A stretch of DNA of 61,912 nucleotides, from contig JBBSPX010000001.1 of the NCBI GenBank assembly GCA_038258395.1, positions 1 to 61,912 on the forward strand, written 5' to 3'. Positions 6,347 through 48,486 of the stretch are shown in pieces. The notes beneath the pieces are model-generated. The model was not told the DNA's origin. It did not search any database and saw only the letters and a list, made by a program, of their open reading frames with translations. The stretch is from Gemmatimonadales bacterium. Its GTDB lineage: Bacteria; Gemmatimonadota; Gemmatimonadetes; Gemmatimonadales; GWC2-71-9. How positions within the stretch are numbered: the first letter of the stretch is position 1; each line of letters begins with the position of its first letter. The position numbers were made by a program, and so were the translations under genes.

Positions 6347-6390
6347 CGGTCCGAATATATCGGTCGGCCACCCCCACACCCCCCCTTGGC

Positions 6391-6463
6391 GCTTTCTCAC
6401 CTTCTCTCTTTCTCTCCTTCTCGCTTTCTCGCCTTATCGCCTTCTCGCTTTCTCGCCTTCTCG
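6391..6463. repeat. Pyrimidine-rich tandem repeat, ~9 units of an 8-nt motif (CYTTMTCG)
   Basis: 6416-6463 reads 'ccttctcg ctttctcg ccttatcg ccttctcg ctttctcg ccttctcg', preceded by degenerate 'gctttctcaccttctctctttctct'. It lies in the divergent region between the CPBP gene and rmuC. On the CPBP sense strand it reads (CGAGAARG)n. Confidence 0.9.
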
Positions 6464-6556
6464 CGTTGACTGGCCGACACTAGATGGCAGATCCCGGCCC
6501 TGCTCCCCTCCCCGGGGGGGCGGCGCCTCCGGCCATCCCCGTCACCGGGTGTATCC

Positions 6557-7813
6557 ATGTTCGATCCCTTCCTGCTGATCCCGCTCACCATCGGCTTCCT
6601 CTTGGGTGCCCTCATCTGCTGGCTGGCCATGCGGAGCTCCGTCGCCCGCCTGACCGCCGAGATCGGGGCCGCCGAAAGGTTCCGCGACCGCACCCTCTCG
6701 GCGAGCGAGAACGACGGTCACCTGCGCGACGCCTTCACCGCGATGAGCGCCGAGGCGCTCCAGGCCAACAACGCCGCCTTCATCGAGCAGGCCAAGCAGG
6801 CATTCAGCGAACTCCAGACCGCGGCGAGCGGCGACCTCGAACTCCGGAAGCAGGCGGTCGAGCAACTCGTCGAACCGATCCGGAAGGGGCTCGAACAGGT
6901 CGACTCGAAGTTGCAGGCGTTCGATGTCTCGCGTGCGGAGTCGCACGGTGCGCTCGAGGGGATGCTCAAGACAATGCACGAATCGCATCACACCCTCGCG
7001 ACCGAGACACACCAACTCGTTGCGGCGCTCCGCCAGCCACAGGGCCGGGGACAGTGGGGCGAGCTGCAACTGAAGCGGGTCGTCGAACTCGCCGGTATGC
7101 TCGAGCATTGTGACTTCGCGACCCAGCACACCACCGAAGGCGACGATGGCGCCAAGCGACCGGACCTGATCGTCCGCCTCCCCGGCAACAAGGTCGTCGT
7201 GGTCGACGCCAAGGCACCACTCTCGGCCTACCTCGATGCGAGCAACGCGGAGAACGAGACGGCGCGCAATGCGTTCCTCGATCAGCATGCCAAGCAGGTG
7301 CGCAATCATGTGTCCCAGCTGAGTCGACGTGACTACACCAACGAGTTCAGCGAGGCGCCGGACTTCGTGGTGCTCTTCCTGCCGGGTGAAGCGTTCTTCG
7401 CCGCAGCATGCCAGCGCGATCCTGGCCTGCTCGACTACGCCGTCGGCAAGGGCGTGATTCCGGCATCGCCGACCACACTGATCACGCTGCTCAAGGCGGT
7501 CAACTTCGGGTGGCAACAGGAACGGATTGCCCGGAATGCCGAGGAGATCCGCGACCTGGGCATCTCGCTCTACGATCGAATGGCGACGCTCGCCGAGCAT
7601 CTGATCAAGGTGCGGCGCGGCCTCGAAGGCGCCGTGCGCGCCTACAACGATGCGATGGGTTCGATCGAGCGGCGCGTGCTGCCGACTGCTCGCCGGTTCC
7701 GGGACCTGGGACTGACCAGTCGCTCGGAGATCTCACCGCTGCGATCGGTCGGCGGCGATCCGCTTCGCATCGCCAGCGCCGAGGAGATGGTCGATCAGGA
7801 GGTGTTGCTTTAG
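6557..7813 (+). CDS. rmuC: DNA recombination protein RmuC
   Basis: N-terminal TM helix, a long coiled-coil, then 'RPDLIVRLPGNKVVVVDAKAP' and 'DFVVLFLPGEAFF', which are typical of the RmuC nuclease-like domain. Confidence 0.9.
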   Translation: MFDPFLLIPLTIGFLLGALICWLAMRSSVARLTAEIGAAERFRDRTLSASENDGHLRDAFTAMSAEALQANNAAFIEQAKQAFSELQTAASGDLELRKQAVEQLVEPIRKGLEQVDSKLQAFDVSRAESHGALEGMLKTMHESHHTLATETHQLVAALRQPQGRGQWGELQLKRVVELAGMLEHCDFATQHTTEGDDGAKRPDLIVRLPGNKVVVVDAKAPLSAYLDASNAENETARNAFLDQHAKQVRNHVSQLSRRDYTNEFSEAPDFVVLFLPGEAFFAAACQRDPGLLDYAVGKGVIPASPTTLITLLKAVNFGWQQERIARNAEEIRDLGISLYDRMATLAEHLIKVRRGLEGAVRAYNDAMGSIERRVLPTARRFRDLGLTSRSEISPLRSVGGDPLRIASAEEMVDQEVLL

Positions 7814-7833: not shown

Positions 7834-7848
7834 TCGAGATCCAGGAGA

Positions 7849-7869
7849 AGTGAGCAGTGAGCAGTGAGA
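7849..7869. repeat. Heptamer tandem repeat AGTGAGC x3
   Basis: 'agtgagc agtgagc agtgaga'. Confidence 0.85.
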
Positions 7870-7916
7870 ACCAGCCCGTACAATCACAATGGTCTCCCCG
7901 ATTAGCATTCCAGCGG

Positions 7917-7951
7917 CTTCTCGCTTCTCGCTTCTCGCTTCCCGCTTCTCG
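7917..7951. repeat. Heptamer tandem repeat CTTCTCG x5 (one variant, CTTCCCG)
   Basis: 'cttctcg cttctcg cttctcg cttcccg cttctcg'. It has the same core and orientation as the array at 6416-6463 and ends 10 nt before ATG 7962. Confidence 0.95.
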
Positions 7952-7961
7952 AGCTTCCTGC

Positions 7962-9470
7962 ATGCACAACACTCCTCCCGTCGACATGCCGCCGGACGAA
8001 TTCCGTCGCCATGGCTACGCCGTGATCGATCGCCTCGTCGATTACTTCGTCACTGCTGCCGCGCGACCGGCCTACCCTGCCGTATCTCCGCTGGATATCG
8101 CGCCGCTCTTCGACGTGCCGGCGCCGGAACATGGCGAGCCGCTCGAGACGATCCTCACCGACTGGGAGACGAAGATTCTCCCGAATTCCTCAGTGCAATC
8201 GAGTCCCCGATTCTTCGGCTGGGTCAATGGCGGCGGCAGTCAGGTCGGTGCCCTCGCCGATGCCCTCGCGAGCGGCCTCAACCCGAACCCGGGCGGTTGG
8301 CGAGCGGCACAGGCGGCCACGGTCATCGAGAACCAGACCATCCGCTGGCTTGCCGACTTGATGGGCCTCGACCCTTCGACCAGCGGACTGTTCGTCTCGG
8401 GCGGCACGATGGCCAACACCGCCGCACTCCGGATGGCCCTCACGGCGACGGCAGCCTGGGACATCGTGAACGAGGGTCTTCAATCTCCGGATCGGCCCCG
8501 CCATCTCACGGTCTACATGGCCGACCACGAGTCGCACGTCTCGCTCAAGAAGGCGGTTGACCTGCTCGGTCTCGGTCGCAACGCGATCCGTCTCGTGCCA
8601 TCGCGCCCCGACTTCACGATCGATCCCGACGCACTCGAGGCGATGCTCAGCAGCGACATCGCCAACGGGATGACACCATTCTGTCTCGTGGGCCACGCCG
8701 GATCGATCAATGTCGGCGCAATCGACGATCTCACCGCGATGGCCGACATCGCCACGCGTCACAAGCTCTGGTTTCATGTCGATGGCGCTTGTGGCGCGCT
8801 CGGCGCGATCCTGCCCGAACTGCGGCCACGGTATGCCGGGATGGAACGCGCCGATTCCGTCTCGTTCGATGCGCACAAGTGGATGGGTGTCCCCTACGAG
8901 TGCGGCTGCGTGATGGCTCGCGATCCGGCGCATCTTCGACAGGGATTCGCCGTCACGGCGAGCTACCTGAATGAGGATCACGACCCAGCACTCGAGCCGT
9001 TCGACTTCTACGATCGTGGCCCGCAGATGTCACGCGGCTGGCGCGCGCTCAAGGTGTGGCTCTCGCTTCGACACTACGGCGCCGAGGGGTACCGAGCCTT
9101 CTTCCGGCAGACGATCGACAACGCGCAATACCTGCATGGGTTGGTGAGTGCCCATCCCGCCTGGGAGGTCGTGCAGCCCTCGCCGGCGCTCTATATCTAT
9201 TCCTTCCGGTATGTCGGCGAGCCAGCATTCCAGGCGTCCCAGGCGTCCCTCGACGCCCTCAACGCCGAGATCGCCGATCAGATCAAGCTCCGGAAGATCG
9301 CCCTGGTCATGACCACCCGGATCCGGGGCCGGGTGACCCAACGCCTCTCGATTGCCAATCATCGGACCCGGCGGGAGGACGTTCTGGCGGTCTTCGAGGC
9401 GATGACCCGGATCGGGGCCGAACTCCATCCGGCGAGCCCGGCGCTGGACAAGATCGCCTCCGTGCAGTAG
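7962..9470 (+). CDS. Group II PLP-dependent amino-acid decarboxylase
   Basis: 'FVSGGTMANTAAL', 'WFHVDGACGA' and the PLP-lysine block 'SFDAHKWMGVPYECGC'. The track ORF begins at GTG 7857, but that extension is just the translated heptamer tract. I chose ATG 7962 (alternative 7986). No obvious SD. Confidence 0.85.
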   Translation: MHNTPPVDMPPDEFRRHGYAVIDRLVDYFVTAAARPAYPAVSPLDIAPLFDVPAPEHGEPLETILTDWETKILPNSSVQSSPRFFGWVNGGGSQVGALADALASGLNPNPGGWRAAQAATVIENQTIRWLADLMGLDPSTSGLFVSGGTMANTAALRMALTATAAWDIVNEGLQSPDRPRHLTVYMADHESHVSLKKAVDLLGLGRNAIRLVPSRPDFTIDPDALEAMLSSDIANGMTPFCLVGHAGSINVGAIDDLTAMADIATRHKLWFHVDGACGALGAILPELRPRYAGMERADSVSFDAHKWMGVPYECGCVMARDPAHLRQGFAVTASYLNEDHDPALEPFDFYDRGPQMSRGWRALKVWLSLRHYGAEGYRAFFRQTIDNAQYLHGLVSAHPAWEVVQPSPALYIYSFRYVGEPAFQASQASLDALNAEIADQIKLRKIALVMTTRIRGRVTQRLSIANHRTRREDVLAVFEAMTRIGAELHPASPALDKIASVQ

Positions 9471-44691: not shown

Positions 44692-45210
44692 ATGACACTC
44701 GACCTGCACCGGCAGCTACTCACGCTCGGGTTGAGCGAGCTTCACGGCACGGAGTCGCTGTTGCTCGGGGAACTGCCCCTGCTCATCCGGAAGTCACACA
44801 GTGCTCGCCTGGCGAACGCGCTCGCGGCTCTTCGGTTGCAGACCGAGGTCCAGCTCCTCCGTCTTGAGGCCTGCCTGAATTGCGGCCGCAATGCGGTTCG
44901 GCCGGTTCCGAGTCTCGGAATGCGGGGTCTGATCCGCGAGATGCGCACCGATGCACGCGTCGCAGGCCACGCCGACGTGCAGGACGCCGCACTCCTGGGC
45001 AATGGCCGCCGAGTCGTGCAGTGGCAACTCGGGATGTATGCGAACACCCGTCGGGTGGCCCATGCCCTGGATGAGTCGGCCATCGTCCGCTGGCTCGATC
45101 AGGGTATCGCTGAGGAACAACGCGCCGACGTGATCCTGACCCGGATCATGGCCGAAGAGGTGGGCCCCGCCGCCTGTCGCGCCACCACGGCGTTCACCGC
45201 GACTACATGA
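44692..45210 (+). CDS. DUF892-like protein, copy B3 (most diverged)
   Basis: 'LSELHGTESL', 'SLGMRGLIREM', 'RRVVQWQLGMY' and 'QGIAEEQRAD' are in the same order and spacing as the DUF892 blocks, but several conserved Glu/His positions are replaced. Confidence 0.65.
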   Translation: MTLDLHRQLLTLGLSELHGTESLLLGELPLLIRKSHSARLANALAALRLQTEVQLLRLEACLNCGRNAVRPVPSLGMRGLIREMRTDARVAGHADVQDAALLGNGRRVVQWQLGMYANTRRVAHALDESAIVRWLDQGIAEEQRADVILTRIMAEEVGPAACRATTAFTATT

Positions 45211-45230
45211 TCGGCATAGCTGGCGTGGCA

Positions 45231-45279
45231 CATCCTTCATCCTTCATCCTTCATCCTTCATCCTTCATCCTTAATCCTT
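45231..45279. repeat. Heptamer tandem repeat CATCCTT x6 + AATCCTT (AAGGATG on the minus strand)
   Basis: A perfect head-to-tail array, read directly. It contains the TGA stop (45251-45253) and the last 9 codons of the minus-strand fusion gene, and begins 21 nt after the stop of the plus-strand gene 44692..45210. Confidence 0.95.
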
Positions 45280-48200
45280 CCAACACCATATCAAGAGTCC
45301 CCACCAAGAGGTCTGCCTCGGCGCGACCAAACACCATCGGCGGCTTGATCTTGAGCACATTGTCGGCCGGACCATCGGTCGAGAGTAACACCCCAGCCTC
45401 GCGCATGGCGTTGATCACCTGCCCCGCCTCCGCGGTCGCCGGCGCCCTGGTCTCGCGGTCAGAAACCAGATCAACTCCGACAAACAGGCCGGCGCCTCGG
45501 ACATCACCGATCAGGGGAGTTCGCTCCGCCAGCTGGCGCAGCCGACCGATGAGATACTCCCCGGTGTCCAGCGCGTGCCGCTGCAGCTCCTCCAGCTCGA
45601 TCACATCGAGCACCGCCATACCGACCGCCGCCGATACCGGATTCCCGCCGAAGGACGAGAAGAATTCCATCCCGTTGGCAAACGCCTCGGCAATCGCAGG
45701 CGTGGTGATCACCGCGGCCATCGGATGCCCATTGCCGATCGGTTTGCCGATCGTGACGATGTCGGGCACCACATCCTGCAGCTCATGCGCCCAGAAGTGT
45801 GAGCCGACCCGGCCGAAGCCGGTCTGCACCTCATCGACAATCACGAGGCCACCGGCTCGCCGCACCCGACGCGCCGCCTCGCCGAGATACCCGTCCGGAT
45901 ACACCACCTGGCCGCCACAGCCCGAGATCGCCTCGGCGATGAATGCCGCGGGACCGGAGCCGGACCCGCTCCTCTCTTCGATCGCCGCGATGCACTGATC
46001 GATCGAGTCGGCATATGAGAGCGCCGCCGAGTGATCGGTGCCGCGGAACGGGCCACGATAGGGGTCAGGCAGCGTGGCCACCTGGACATGCGCCACCTGC
46101 CCCGAGCCGCCCGCACGCTTGAACTTGTATGGGCTCACCTCGATCAGCGCAGACGTGTGCCCGTGGTAGCCCCAATCGAGCGTAATCATGTCGCGTCGAC
46201 CGGTGACGGTGCGCGCCATCCGGAGCGCAAGCTCATTGGCTTCGGAGCCGGAACACACCATGTACACGACCGAGAGCGGACTCGGAAAGGTTCGGCCCAG
46301 CCGCTCCGCATACTCCACGAGGGTGTCGTGGAGATAGCGGGTATTGGTGTTGAGGATCGCCGCCTGTTGTGCGAGTGCCTCGACCACGTGCGGGTGCGCG
46401 TGTCCAACGTGACAAATATTGTTGACGCAATCGAGGTACGCGCGACCAGTGTGATCATGGAGCCACGTGCCGTGACCGCGCACCATCTTGAGCTTGTGGC
46501 GGTAACTGGTCGAGAGCGAGGGTCCGATGACGGCCTCGCGACGCGACAGTAGCATGGGGGGGGGCGATGCATCGACCGCGAAACTCTCCGGGGCAAGTTT
46601 CAGCACGAGGTTCGGATCCGGCGCAATCTGTCGCCACACGGGCCAGAGACTCGGATGGCCGACGCCGGGAAAATTGCCTGCGAAGCCGAGCAGGTCGGTG
46701 ATGAGCTGGAAGTGAAGGTGCGGCGCCCAGCCGCCATTCACATCGTCGGCTCCGATCGATCCGATGCGTTGCCCTGCCACGACCCGCCCCCCAACCGTGA
46801 GCAGGTCGAGTGACTCCCGCGCGAGGTGGCCATACAAGGTGTGGAACAGCGGACCACCATCACCGGCCCGATGTTCCAGGATCACCGTCGGACCGTAGTC
46901 GAGTGGCATGGCGTTGTCGACGACGCTCACCACGGTCCCGGCGTAGGGCGCATGGAGCGGCGTCCCCGCAGGCACGAAGAGGTCGAGCCCCAGGTGCTGC
47001 GACCGCGGTTCGGCGGAGATCGGATCACGGAACTGCGCGGTGGTATACACATCGCGCACTTCGCCGTAATTCCCGATCGCCATCGTCGCACCAGCGGCGC
47101 CCATCCGTGCCGTGAGCCAGTCCCAGTACGCCGCGGGATCGGCACCGTACTCCATCCCGGGTGCGCCCTCGACCAGCGACACCACCATGCGACCGGCCCG
47201 CTCGAGATCGAAATCGAAGAATGAGCAGGCCTTCGGCGCGTCGCCCTCGAGCCACTGAACCACTGCATCGTGAGTGCCTACCGCAGGCAAACCGGCCGCG
47301 TGACGCGCCACCGCGGCGAGCAGCGCGGGGTTGCACCGATCAAGGCGATCAAGCAACTGCAACGCGGATGTTTGGGAGACACGCAGATAGGCGTTGTCCG
47401 GAAACTGGATCGCGCGGTGTGACGAGATGCAGACGCTGCCGATAAGCCGCATGGCAACGAGATCGAAGAGCACCTCGAGTTCGTCGGTCTCGAGTGGGAA
47501 CTCCGAGACATATCCTGCAATCACGTCAGCGGCCGACGCCGCCAGATCGTCCACATCCATCAGCGCGTAGGCCAGTACCACCGCGAGCTCGTTTACCTGC
47601 CGGCCGAAGGTGAGATCCCCGAAGTCGATCATCCCCGTGACGATCGTGCCCTGCTCGTCGACGAGCAGGTTGTTGTCGTTCAGGTCCTGATGGACCACCG
47701 CACCCCGGAGCGTCGCTAGACGGGGCAGGACTCGGGAGTGATAGCGCGCAACATGGCGCCTCACCATCGCCTGATGCGCAGGATCGGCGATGTCGCGCAC
47801 CCATGGTTCGAGCGCCTGCACCTCGTCGAGACTCCAGATGAAGCCGGGACGATGCGCCGCCGGATGACCGAATCCCTGTAGTGCTCGCGACAACCTCCCG
47901 ACGCATTCGCCGAGGCTCTGCAACACTACTGGTGATGCATCGATGCTCGAGTAGAGGCGTCCAGGCAGATAGCTGAGCAGGCGCACAACATGTGGTGTGC
48001 CATCGTGATGCCATGTCACGCAGGCATCGCCGCTGAGCGTGCGAATCACCCGCGGTACGCCGAGCGCTGGTGCCACCGAGGCCAGGTGCGCGAAGACGGC
48101 TTCCTGCAACTGGATGAGTTGCATGTCCTCGAGCGCGTTCCCGATCTTGAGGACATACCCACCGTCGTCGCTGCTGACGTGGAAGTTCTGGTCGCGTTCG

Positions 48201-48313
48201 CTGACCAGTGGAGCTAGCGCACCCGTCAGACCAAAGTCGCGAGACAGGAGCGTCTCCACCTCCGCCTCGGTGAACGCGGGCTTCTGGTGGTCGAACACCG
48301 TCATGCCGGGCAT
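45251..48313 (-). CDS. Tri-domain fusion: APH-type kinase (hydroxylysine-kinase-like) + M23 peptidase + class-III aminotransferase-fold (phospho-lyase-like)
   Basis: Kinase blocks are 'HQDLNDNNLLVD' and 'IDFGDL'. The M23 domain has 'HLGLDLFVPAGTPL' and 'GWAPHLHFQL'. The PLP fold has 'CSGSEANE' and the lysine block 'DIVTIGKPIGNGHPMAAV'. Start trimmed to ATG 48313 (alternative 48304); the track extension to 48436 overlaps a better small ORF. Confidence 0.9.
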   Translation of the reverse strand: MPGMTVFDHQKPAFTEAEVETLLSRDFGLTGALAPLVSERDQNFHVSSDDGGYVLKIGNALEDMQLIQLQEAVFAHLASVAPALGVPRVIRTLSGDACVTWHHDGTPHVVRLLSYLPGRLYSSIDASPVVLQSLGECVGRLSRALQGFGHPAAHRPGFIWSLDEVQALEPWVRDIADPAHQAMVRRHVARYHSRVLPRLATLRGAVVHQDLNDNNLLVDEQGTIVTGMIDFGDLTFGRQVNELAVVLAYALMDVDDLAASAADVIAGYVSEFPLETDELEVLFDLVAMRLIGSVCISSHRAIQFPDNAYLRVSQTSALQLLDRLDRCNPALLAAVARHAAGLPAVGTHDAVVQWLEGDAPKACSFFDFDLERAGRMVVSLVEGAPGMEYGADPAAYWDWLTARMGAAGATMAIGNYGEVRDVYTTAQFRDPISAEPRSQHLGLDLFVPAGTPLHAPYAGTVVSVVDNAMPLDYGPTVILEHRAGDGGPLFHTLYGHLARESLDLLTVGGRVVAGQRIGSIGADDVNGGWAPHLHFQLITDLLGFAGNFPGVGHPSLWPVWRQIAPDPNLVLKLAPESFAVDASPPPMLLSRREAVIGPSLSTSYRHKLKMVRGHGTWLHDHTGRAYLDCVNNICHVGHAHPHVVEALAQQAAILNTNTRYLHDTLVEYAERLGRTFPSPLSVVYMVCSGSEANELALRMARTVTGRRDMITLDWGYHGHTSALIEVSPYKFKRAGGSGQVAHVQVATLPDPYRGPFRGTDHSAALSYADSIDQCIAAIEERSGSGSGPAAFIAEAISGCGGQVVYPDGYLGEAARRVRRAGGLVIVDEVQTGFGRVGSHFWAHELQDVVPDIVTIGKPIGNGHPMAAVITTPAIAEAFANGMEFFSSFGGNPVSAAVGMAVLDVIELEELQRHALDTGEYLIGRLRQLAERTPLIGDVRGAGLFVGVDLVSDRETRAPATAEAGQVINAMREAGVLLSTDGPADNVLKIKPPMVFGRAEADLLVGTLDMVLEGLRMKDEG

Positions 48314-48327
48314 CGGTGGGACCTGAC

Positions 48328-48486
48328 TCAGAAGTTGCGCAGCATGAACCAGCGCGCCCACCAGACACCGGCGGCGGTGCCGACCGCGCTCAGCATCACG
48401 GATCCCCAGATCCCGAATACCGACCCCACCCACCACCCGATTGCACCCCCGACCGTCGAGCCGATCAGCCAGAGCAGGCGGGTCAT
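48328..48486 (-). CDS. 52-aa glycine-zipper membrane micro-protein (below the ORF-track size cut-off)
   Basis: My own translation is 'MTRLLWLIGSTVGGAIGWWVGSVFGIWGSVMLSAVGTAAGVWWARWFMLRNF*'. It has high GC3 and an ATGA overlap with the stop of the upstream gene 48483..48995, and ends 14 nt before the fusion-gene start. Confidence 0.5.
   Translation of the reverse strand: MTRLLWLIGSTVGGAIGWWVGSVFGIWGSVMLSAVGTAAGVWWARWFMLRNF

Follow-up and report, generated by a model that had tools for sequence, protein, structure and literature searches.

The heptamer array that closes a 1020-aa fusion gene in the genome studied here belongs to a known, still unexplained kind of bacterial repeat and is not special to that gene. 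It is a solo arm of a genome-wide heptamer family, probably without a function specific to its locus, and its only demonstrable effect is a short, variable tail at the C-terminus of the encoded protein. In the following, the window is the whole stretch of DNA that was analysed (61,912 nt); it comes from an assembly of 2.58 Mb in 241 contigs (65.8% G+C, 81.6% complete), referred to as G000.

A heptamer array closes the fusion gene

On the plus strand, the array consists of six perfect CATCCTT units (45231–45272) followed by a single AATCCTT (45273–45279). TRF reports it at 45231–45280 with a period of 7, 7.1 copies, 95% matches and a score of 93, and the copy number of seven comes from a single MAG assembly. 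The initial annotation had described six perfect units and one variant unit placed head to tail; sequence and TRF both agree with this description, which is correct in every detail. A search for three units with up to two mismatches gave five overlapping matches in the real window vs none in 100 dinucleotide-preserving window shuffles. As read by the adjoining fusion gene, the array is a solo purine-type arm at its 3' end (Table 1).

The fusion gene lies in a long minus-strand open reading frame (45251–48436) with Pfam matches to APH, Peptidase_M23 and Aminotran_3. We placed its start at M42 of the listed frame (ATG 48313), which gives 1020 aa, because the N-termini of relatives follow the pattern M-x-G-M/S/T-T/S-V-F (e.g., MIGMTVFDH..). 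The gene ends with GTG TTG GAA GGA TTA AGG ATG AAG GAT GAA GGA TGA (VLEGLRMKDEG*), so that the array begins nine codons before the stop (E1012 of 1020) and, as the initial annotation had proposed, supplies both the final residues and the stop codon itself. The last seven residues, LRMKDEG, are extra relative to the closest relatives. They follow from the variant base at 45273, which removes the TGA used by the sister species G335; the next in-frame TGA lies exactly 21 nt further on and adds seven residues. Fusions of APH, M23 and aminotransferase domains are widespread, with 45–75% identity and a uniform length of ~1010–1020 aa, in Gemmatimonadota, Alphaproteobacteria (Aestuariivirga, Hyphomicrobiaceae), Acidobacteriota, Actinomycetota, Verrucomicrobiota and others.

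The neighbouring DUF892 gene is convergent with the fusion gene. The two stop codons are 40 nt apart, 20 nt of this spacer being array, and in the DUF892 transcript the array would appear as G-free (CAUCCUU)n from 20 nt past the stop of that gene; (CATCCTT)n on the plus strand is stop-free in every frame. An exact-protein look-up returned no identical record for the DUF892 protein, and a metagenome search with the array flank gave a single match, a chance similarity in a subtilisin-like gene.

Table 1 Features at the end of the fusion gene in window coordinates.
Feature	Position	Strand	Remark
DUF892 (ferritin-like) gene	44692..45210	+	convergent with the fusion gene
Non-repeat spacer, 20 nt	45211..45230		identical in sister species G335; no partner arm
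Heptamer array	45231..45279	-	minus-strand reading AAGGATT, then AAGGATG x6
TGA stop of fusion gene	45253-45251	-	straddles the junction of two repeat units
Array-encoded C-terminal residues	45254..45280	-	E-G-L-R-M-K-D-E-G
Variant base	45273	A on plus, T on minus	first in-frame TGA becomes TTA
Fusion protein CDS, 1020 aa	45254..48313	-	APH-type kinase (PF01636), M23 peptidase (PF01551), class-III aminotransferase (PF00202)

The initial annotation had seen no hairpin terminator between the two genes, and a terminator scan confirmed that 45211–45330 contains no terminator-like site. The combination of a G+C-rich hairpin and a U-tract that marks an intrinsic terminator is missing at the array: no hairpin was predicted there on either strand, and the array is unpaired in both MFE and centroid folds. 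Folding z-scores for the two strands were +2.3 and +0.45, the former belonging to the minus-strand RNA, for which every one of 200 shuffles folded better. Rfam contained no family matching the locus apart from a single sub-threshold RsmZ-like match within coding sequence. The longest G run in AAGGATG is GG, short of the three or more G in at least four units that define a G-quadruplex.

The same site in related genomes

Orthologues of the fusion gene are widespread, and those of more distant relatives end 2–4 residues past a conserved ..VL. In G012, a member of the same genus with 84% protein identity, array and DUF892 neighbour are both absent and the protein ends with ..VLGRA*. In the sister species G335 (JBDTNH01; ~91% identical at the nucleotide level in syntenic regions), the DUF892 neighbour and the array boundaries are retained. 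Its array consists of five units (AAGGATG AAGGATC AACGATG AAGGATG AAGGATG), in the first of which the fusion gene stops (GAA GGA TGA; ..VLEG*). A third version was found on a Logan contig (92% protein identity) that carries at least seven units of the AACGATG/GACGATG type in the order AACGATG AGCGATG AACGATG GACGATG.., ends the protein with ..VLER* and itself ends within the array. Neither G000 nor G335 showed any remnant of a partner arm at the locus.

The comparison of copy number among relatives suggested by the initial annotation thus bears out its view of an unstable tract: at the identical site, counts and composition differ, with seven, five and at least seven units in three lineages and none in G012, so that instability is seen over evolutionary time. 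The array thus arose after the split from G012 and before the split of the three close lineages, and the number and kind of its units have changed since.

Heptamer families in the genome

The array has many relatives in its own genome. Further (AAGGATG)n tracts, for which the initial annotation had recommended a search, were readily detected: three AAGGATG units with at most one mismatch were matched 33 times on many contigs vs 0 times in the reversed control. TRF identified 316 period-7 arrays in the whole genome, about as many as with period 9 and more than with period 6 or 12. The most frequent units were AAGCGAG (50), AACGATG (31), AAGGATG (27), AAACGAG (15), AAGGATT (14) and AACGATT (14). 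They fall into family A (consensus AASGATK; grouped as AASGATN), with 84 arms at 61 loci, and family B (AARYGAG), with 67 arms at 55 loci; both families together occupy about 115–116 loci.

Positions relative to genes were judged by a rough codon-usage caller (2051 genes, 87% coding), whose start codons are imprecise. By these calls, almost every arm is situated between genes or extends over a gene end; of 86 family-A TRF rows, only one falls deep within a called gene, in a genome that is 87% coding. Arrays occur in divergent promoter regions too, and some contigs begin or end within arrays. Altogether, 28 genes stop inside arrays, 27 of them reading the purine orientation, which results in stereotyped tails (..MKDEG*, ..ND*, ..KD*, ..NDER*).

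With about 116 such loci and 28 genes ending in arrays, the array is no special device of the fusion gene or the convergent gene pair. The notion of an all-frame stop cassette put forward in the initial annotation survives in part. By sequence arithmetic, (AAGGATG)n does contain TGA in all three frames within 21 nt, and this worked as a fail-safe after the change at 45273; the cassette is not a purpose-made device of the fusion gene. Nor is a stop cassette the general design of such arrays, since the AAGCGAG unit of family B provides no stop in any frame and yet shows the same gene-end placement.

Two further arrays lie in the window. At ~7843–7951, past a gene ending at 7813, a family-B pair (GAGAAGT GAGCAGT GAGCAGT GAGAAC, a 47-nt spacer and (GCTTCTC)x5) has a purine arm followed by a pyrimidine arm, like all other pairs. 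At 6390–6464, an intergenic pyrimidine-type array of 75 nt is built from mixed 7- and 8-nt units (CTTTCTCG / CCTTCTCG; TRF period 8, 9.4 copies) related to family B plus an extra base.

Turnover between species

Family A is nearly confined to this genome. Three AASGATK units gave 97 matches in G000 (control 0), 5 in G335, and 4 and 1 in two further genus genomes; the family is essentially absent from 48 of the 51 other genus genomes, and practically none was found in 300 genomes sampled across the phylum. Family B is present in 18 of 52 genus genomes, with up to 345 matches, and absent in the other 34.

A comparison of 22 orthologous sites in G000 and G335 revealed differences in copy number, unit family and presence. 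Some orthologous arrays are identical or differ in copy number alone; at other sites, family A in G000 corresponds to family B or a GCT-type unit in G335, and one pair is missing from G335. One intergenic site is empty in G012 and holds a (GGATGAT)n pair in G015, a family-B pair in G335 and a family-A pair in G000. At another, the outgroup and G335 share a family-B purine arm and an A-like pyrimidine arm, of which G000 has lost the first and expanded the second; some of the apparent family switching thus reflects mixed pairs whose arms were differentially lost and expanded. At one G335 site, a family-B array has apparently grown out of ..GGCGGGG...

A target-site duplication was considered and rejected. 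The family-A pair at G000:C98:3851-3940 lies between convergent genes with CTAG on both flanks, and at the orthologous site in G335 (G335:C13, L149:~15225) the genes share an overlapping CTAG stop and the array is absent. CTAG at this one clean presence/absence site could equally reflect a microhomology deletion, and other pairs lack a consistent duplication.

Arrangement of arms and pairs

The arms follow rules of orientation. All 35 pairs (23 of family A, 12 of family B) consist of a purine arm followed by a pyrimidine arm, i.e., 5'-(AAGGATG)n..(CATCCTT)n-3', and the opposite order was never seen; the two arms are separated by 0 to about 130 nt. Close to gene 3' ends (within 30 nt), arms that are purine-type on the coding strand outnumber the others 68:7, and near gene 5' ends pyrimidine-type arms prevail 27:14. 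An 800-kb sample of G335 gave 14:3 at 3' ends and 8:2 at 5' ends, with the same polarity in 3 of 3 pairs. The array at 45231–45279, purine-type as read by the fusion gene, fits this rule. A uniform polarity of all 35 pairs is what would be expected if the two arms belonged to one kind of element.

The pairs do not behave like selected hairpins. Complementarity within pairs was 0.843 vs 0.849 for permuted partners in family A and 0.889 vs 0.886 in family B. The arms of a pair are thus no more complementary than arms from other loci, and pairing within a family is not maintained locus by locus.

Several heptamer pairs enclose a palindromic element of ~90 nt (TGTCACCCCGAACG....CGTTCGGGGTGACA), in either orientation and exactly between the arms; in G000, it was found at C19:9543-9634, C74:8385-8477, C91:7365-7454, C92:2863-2965 and C31:~7900-8010. 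G335 and contig C13 of G000 have a second type of between-arm element (GTCATCCCGAG....CTCGGGATGAC). Insertions seem to favour the centre of a pair.

Both the bias at 3' ends and the fact that sites persist across species could be signs of selection and hence of function. Arrays would then be selected cis-elements of gene ends, acting either as a purine-rich, unstructured start of the 3' UTR or as the G-free pyrimidine complement on the opposing transcript, and could serve protein binding, Rho loading or the insulation of convergent transcription. We regard this as unlikely, though it is the best of the rival accounts. It draws on the orientation ratios at both gene ends in G000 and G335, on sites that persist between species while their content changes, and on the DUF892 transcript, which has a 49-nt G-free, C/U-rich stretch 20 nt past its stop that we take to be rut-like by composition. 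The same orientation rule has also been published for Xanthomonas and Nostoc. On the other hand, the unit sequence is unconserved even at one and the same site, where A, B, GCT-type and GGATGAT units replace each other, and the arrays are dispensable, as judged from the near absence of family A from phylum and genus and the absence of family B from 34 of 52 genus genomes. Arrays in divergent promoter regions, pair arms that match each other no better than arms of other loci, and the absence of a detectable CsrA gene from the genome also speak against it. The orientation rule follows equally well if each pair represents the arms of a single element that borders on the neighbouring genes with its outer ends.

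S23p genes within inverted heptamer arrays

An element with two such arms exists in the genus. A PF05635 (S23p) gene is present in 40 of 52 genus genomes, and of 25 distinct S23p genes examined, 23 are flanked on either side, within some 40–130 nt, by heptamer arrays in inverted orientation; the remaining two have an array on one side, one of these genes being cut by a contig end. The arms of a cassette are reverse complements of each other, while their units vary among cassettes, one of which has 8-mers. Around the five cassettes examined, no match to an rRNA gene was found, which sets them apart from a location in 23S.

One cassette site is common to eight genus genomes (G012:C1:6872-7416, with orthologous sites in G006, G015, G327, G007, G329, G340 and G014), and its arm unit differs in each (GGAAGTC, AGGTCGT, TGAGTCC, GCCTTGG, GTCGTTA, GGTCGAT ...). 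Because the units differ per species and the arms nevertheless stay complementary, both arms of a complete cassette change in concert. The same site holds a pair without a gene in G335 (L174), and in G000 (C31:7858-8052) it holds arms without a gene plus an unrelated 90-nt palindromic element. In addition, the sole PF05635 match in G335, in a cassette on G335:C10, corresponds to a solo family-A arm at C49:6795-6822 in G000. Gene-less arms at sites orthologous to cassettes indicate that bare arms in this lineage arise by loss of the gene from cassettes, which is the most economical account of the fixed pair polarity and of solo arms at gene boundaries.

No PF05635 match was found in G000 itself (81.6% complete), and the locus under study comprises one arm and no such gene, i.e., not a two-arm cassette. 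Since no cassette with AASGATK arms was found anywhere, the evidence that family A originated from a foldback element comes from analogy and the two orthologous sites. With these data, we consider derivation of the arm at 45231–45279 from a foldback cassette to be a serious possibility, at slightly under even chances. The fuller reading, in which the array is the surviving arm of an S23p/IVS-like foldback insertion element whose arms were rewritten family-wide after loss of the gene, is more tentative still.

Other explanations

The array could instead be a purely local microsatellite, expanded in place through slippage of a proto-repeat that was already present at the 3' end of the gene, without any tie to a mobile or foldback element. 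Such an origin is rather improbable. The end of the gene in G012 (..GGA CGA GCC TAG) does resemble GAA CGA TGA / GAA GGA TGA, the G335 array that apparently emerged from ..GGCGGGG.. offers a parallel, and the over-representation of heptamer repeats in many bacteria is, as outlined in Mrazek (2007), put down to polymerase slippage. Independent origins do not explain how about 60 loci came to share one unit family, why all 35 pairs have identical polarity, or why S23p genes are almost constantly bracketed by arrays; nor do they account for a single intergenic site with complementary pairs of three unrelated units and an empty fourth species.

That the array or its copy number is an artefact of short-read MAG assembly is very improbable: contigs of this and related assemblies do break in such arrays, but its 49 nt fall short of a usual read length, it is embedded in a contig of 61.9 kb, and two independent assemblies show an array at this exact position with the same boundaries.

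Several specific roles and sources were rejected. CsrA sites have an ARGGAUG core, which AAGGAUG matches; a CsrA sponge was discarded because a search for a CsrA gene gave no match and GGA is missing from the units AACGATG and AAGCGAG. Mimicry of Shine-Dalgarno sequences finds no support in AAGGA, which stands upstream of only 3% of called starts, the MAG containing no 16S 3' end. The head-to-head geometry would fit telomerase-like or reverse transcriptase-templated addition at breaks, but no RVT_1 match was found and the arms of S23p cassettes with other units are not consistently purine-first, which leaves this a distant prospect. Mobilisation by a RAYT/REP system was likewise dismissed, as the RAYT-like genes that exist are flanked by unrelated REPs and the heptamer unit is not palindromic. 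One of these genes, at G000:C157:3702-4211 (L177:1300-1809), encodes a Y1 transposase with PDHLHAIL and YIANNP motifs between 118-nt inverted repeats of GC-rich REP hairpins (AACCGCCGCCTGACGGCGGCGGCT). Contig C199 carries another RAYT-like ORF, which is shorter and adjoins a 48-nt tandem repeat. The REP system of C157 and C199 is separate from the heptamers.

A model for the locus and its implications

We propose the following course of events for the locus. Lineage-specific AASGATK arrays occupy intergenic spacers as far as the adjacent coding sequences. Once the G012 lineage had branched off, such an array would have arisen or inserted at the extreme end of the fusion gene, replacing its native stop and the two or three codons before it, possibly as the surviving arm of, or a spin-off from, an S23p-type foldback element. 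Later gain, loss and replacement of units probably occurred via replication slippage. With TGA in every frame of the purine strand, any version of the array would end the protein within 21 nt; the fusion gene can therefore be expected to tolerate the array, with the tail alone varying (..EG*, ..ER*, ..EGLRMKDEG*). For the fusion gene, the effect is small: a variable tail of 0–7 residues on a 1020-aa enzyme.

If the tentative S23p/IVS-like reading is true, its consequences reach beyond this locus. Elements of this type would settle at gene boundaries and lose their small gene, family A would have been amplified in this species alone, occupying sites that hold family B or other units in G335, and about 1% of genes would have their stops and C-terminal tails continually rewritten. 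Bacterial heptamer repeats would also gain a concrete mobile origin that is independent of G-quadruplexes.

A Gemmatimonadota lineage shows the full positional rule set of the G-rich heptamers of Xanthomonas and Nostoc: intergenic arrays that hug the end of the upstream gene, one pair polarity, and sites that persist while their content changes. Because AASGATK and AARYGAG units cannot form G-quadruplexes, the making and placing of such repeats cannot depend on these structures. The genus provides further examples of S23p four-helix-bundle genes associated with heptamer arrays, including the cassette site of eight genomes that has decayed to arms in two species. For annotation, ~28 proteins have repeat-encoded ends that should not be read as conserved C-termini, and heptamer arrays break MAG contigs.

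Comparison with known systems

Our literature search found no paper on such heptamer repeats in Gemmatimonadota. Like phase-variable contingency loci of the Haemophilus/Neisseria type, the array is a slippage-prone tandem repeat that overlaps coding sequence. The contingency repeats, however, lie in the 5' coding region or promoter, whereas the tract studied here sits at the extreme 3' end with a stop in all frames, so that a change in unit number alters a few tail residues at most and cannot switch the gene off; it does not shift most of the reading frame or the promoter spacing. With REP/BIME sequences and their RAYTs, the heptamers share dispersed, species-specific intergenic positions, often at gene ends. 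REP units are, in contrast, palindromes of 20–40 nt, and the RAYT-like gene on G000:C157 is flanked by REP hairpins rather than heptamers.

The STRR sequences of the cyanobacteria Calothrix and Anabaena are tandem heptamers of several sequence families, dispersed in non-coding DNA and lineage-specific. The arrays described here resemble them in having several heptamer families, a non-coding location and restriction to lineages, while units and taxon differ. In marine Beggiatoaceae, TAACTGA direct repeats lie mostly a few nt upstream of start codons, and a single indirect repeat has been reported (MacGregor 2015, PMC4679880). Abundant intergenic heptamers, a patchy phylogenetic spread and stop codons within the unit are common to both systems; the Gemmatimonadota arrays differ in being placed mainly at gene 3' ends, often as inverted pairs.

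The S23p cassettes of the genus recall the S23p-carrying intervening sequences of 23S rRNA, such as the Coxiella burnetii IVS (PMC4990558), in which a PF05635 gene also lies within pairable inverted arms. Unlike the IVS, the genus cassettes examined are outside rRNA genes, and the studied locus is one arm without a gene.

The closest counterparts are the heptameric simple sequence repeats GGGAATC in Xanthomonas and GGGGAYT in Nostoc PCC 7120 (Rehm et al. 2015, PMC4692102), heptamers being, as outlined in Mrazek (2007), an over-represented class of long simple sequence repeats in bacteria. In Xanthomonas and Nostoc, the repeats lie a mean of 28 nt from the upstream ORF, the same intergenic sites differ in length and sequence between sister species, and no function has been found (PMC4692102). 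The Gemmatimonadota families correspond to them in their 7-nt units, in well over a hundred dispersed loci per genome, in being about 90% intergenic, and in their many 'convergent' inverted pairs, although the studied locus itself is a solo arm. They differ in host, in arrays that often run into a stop codon, and in units (AASGATK/AARYGAG) without a G-tract, which makes the proposed G-quadruplex impossible. With tandem units, many loci, a non-coding bias, inverted pairs, a preferred orientation and shared sites of variable content, the array at the end of the fusion gene is a dispersed heptanucleotide repeat of this kind.
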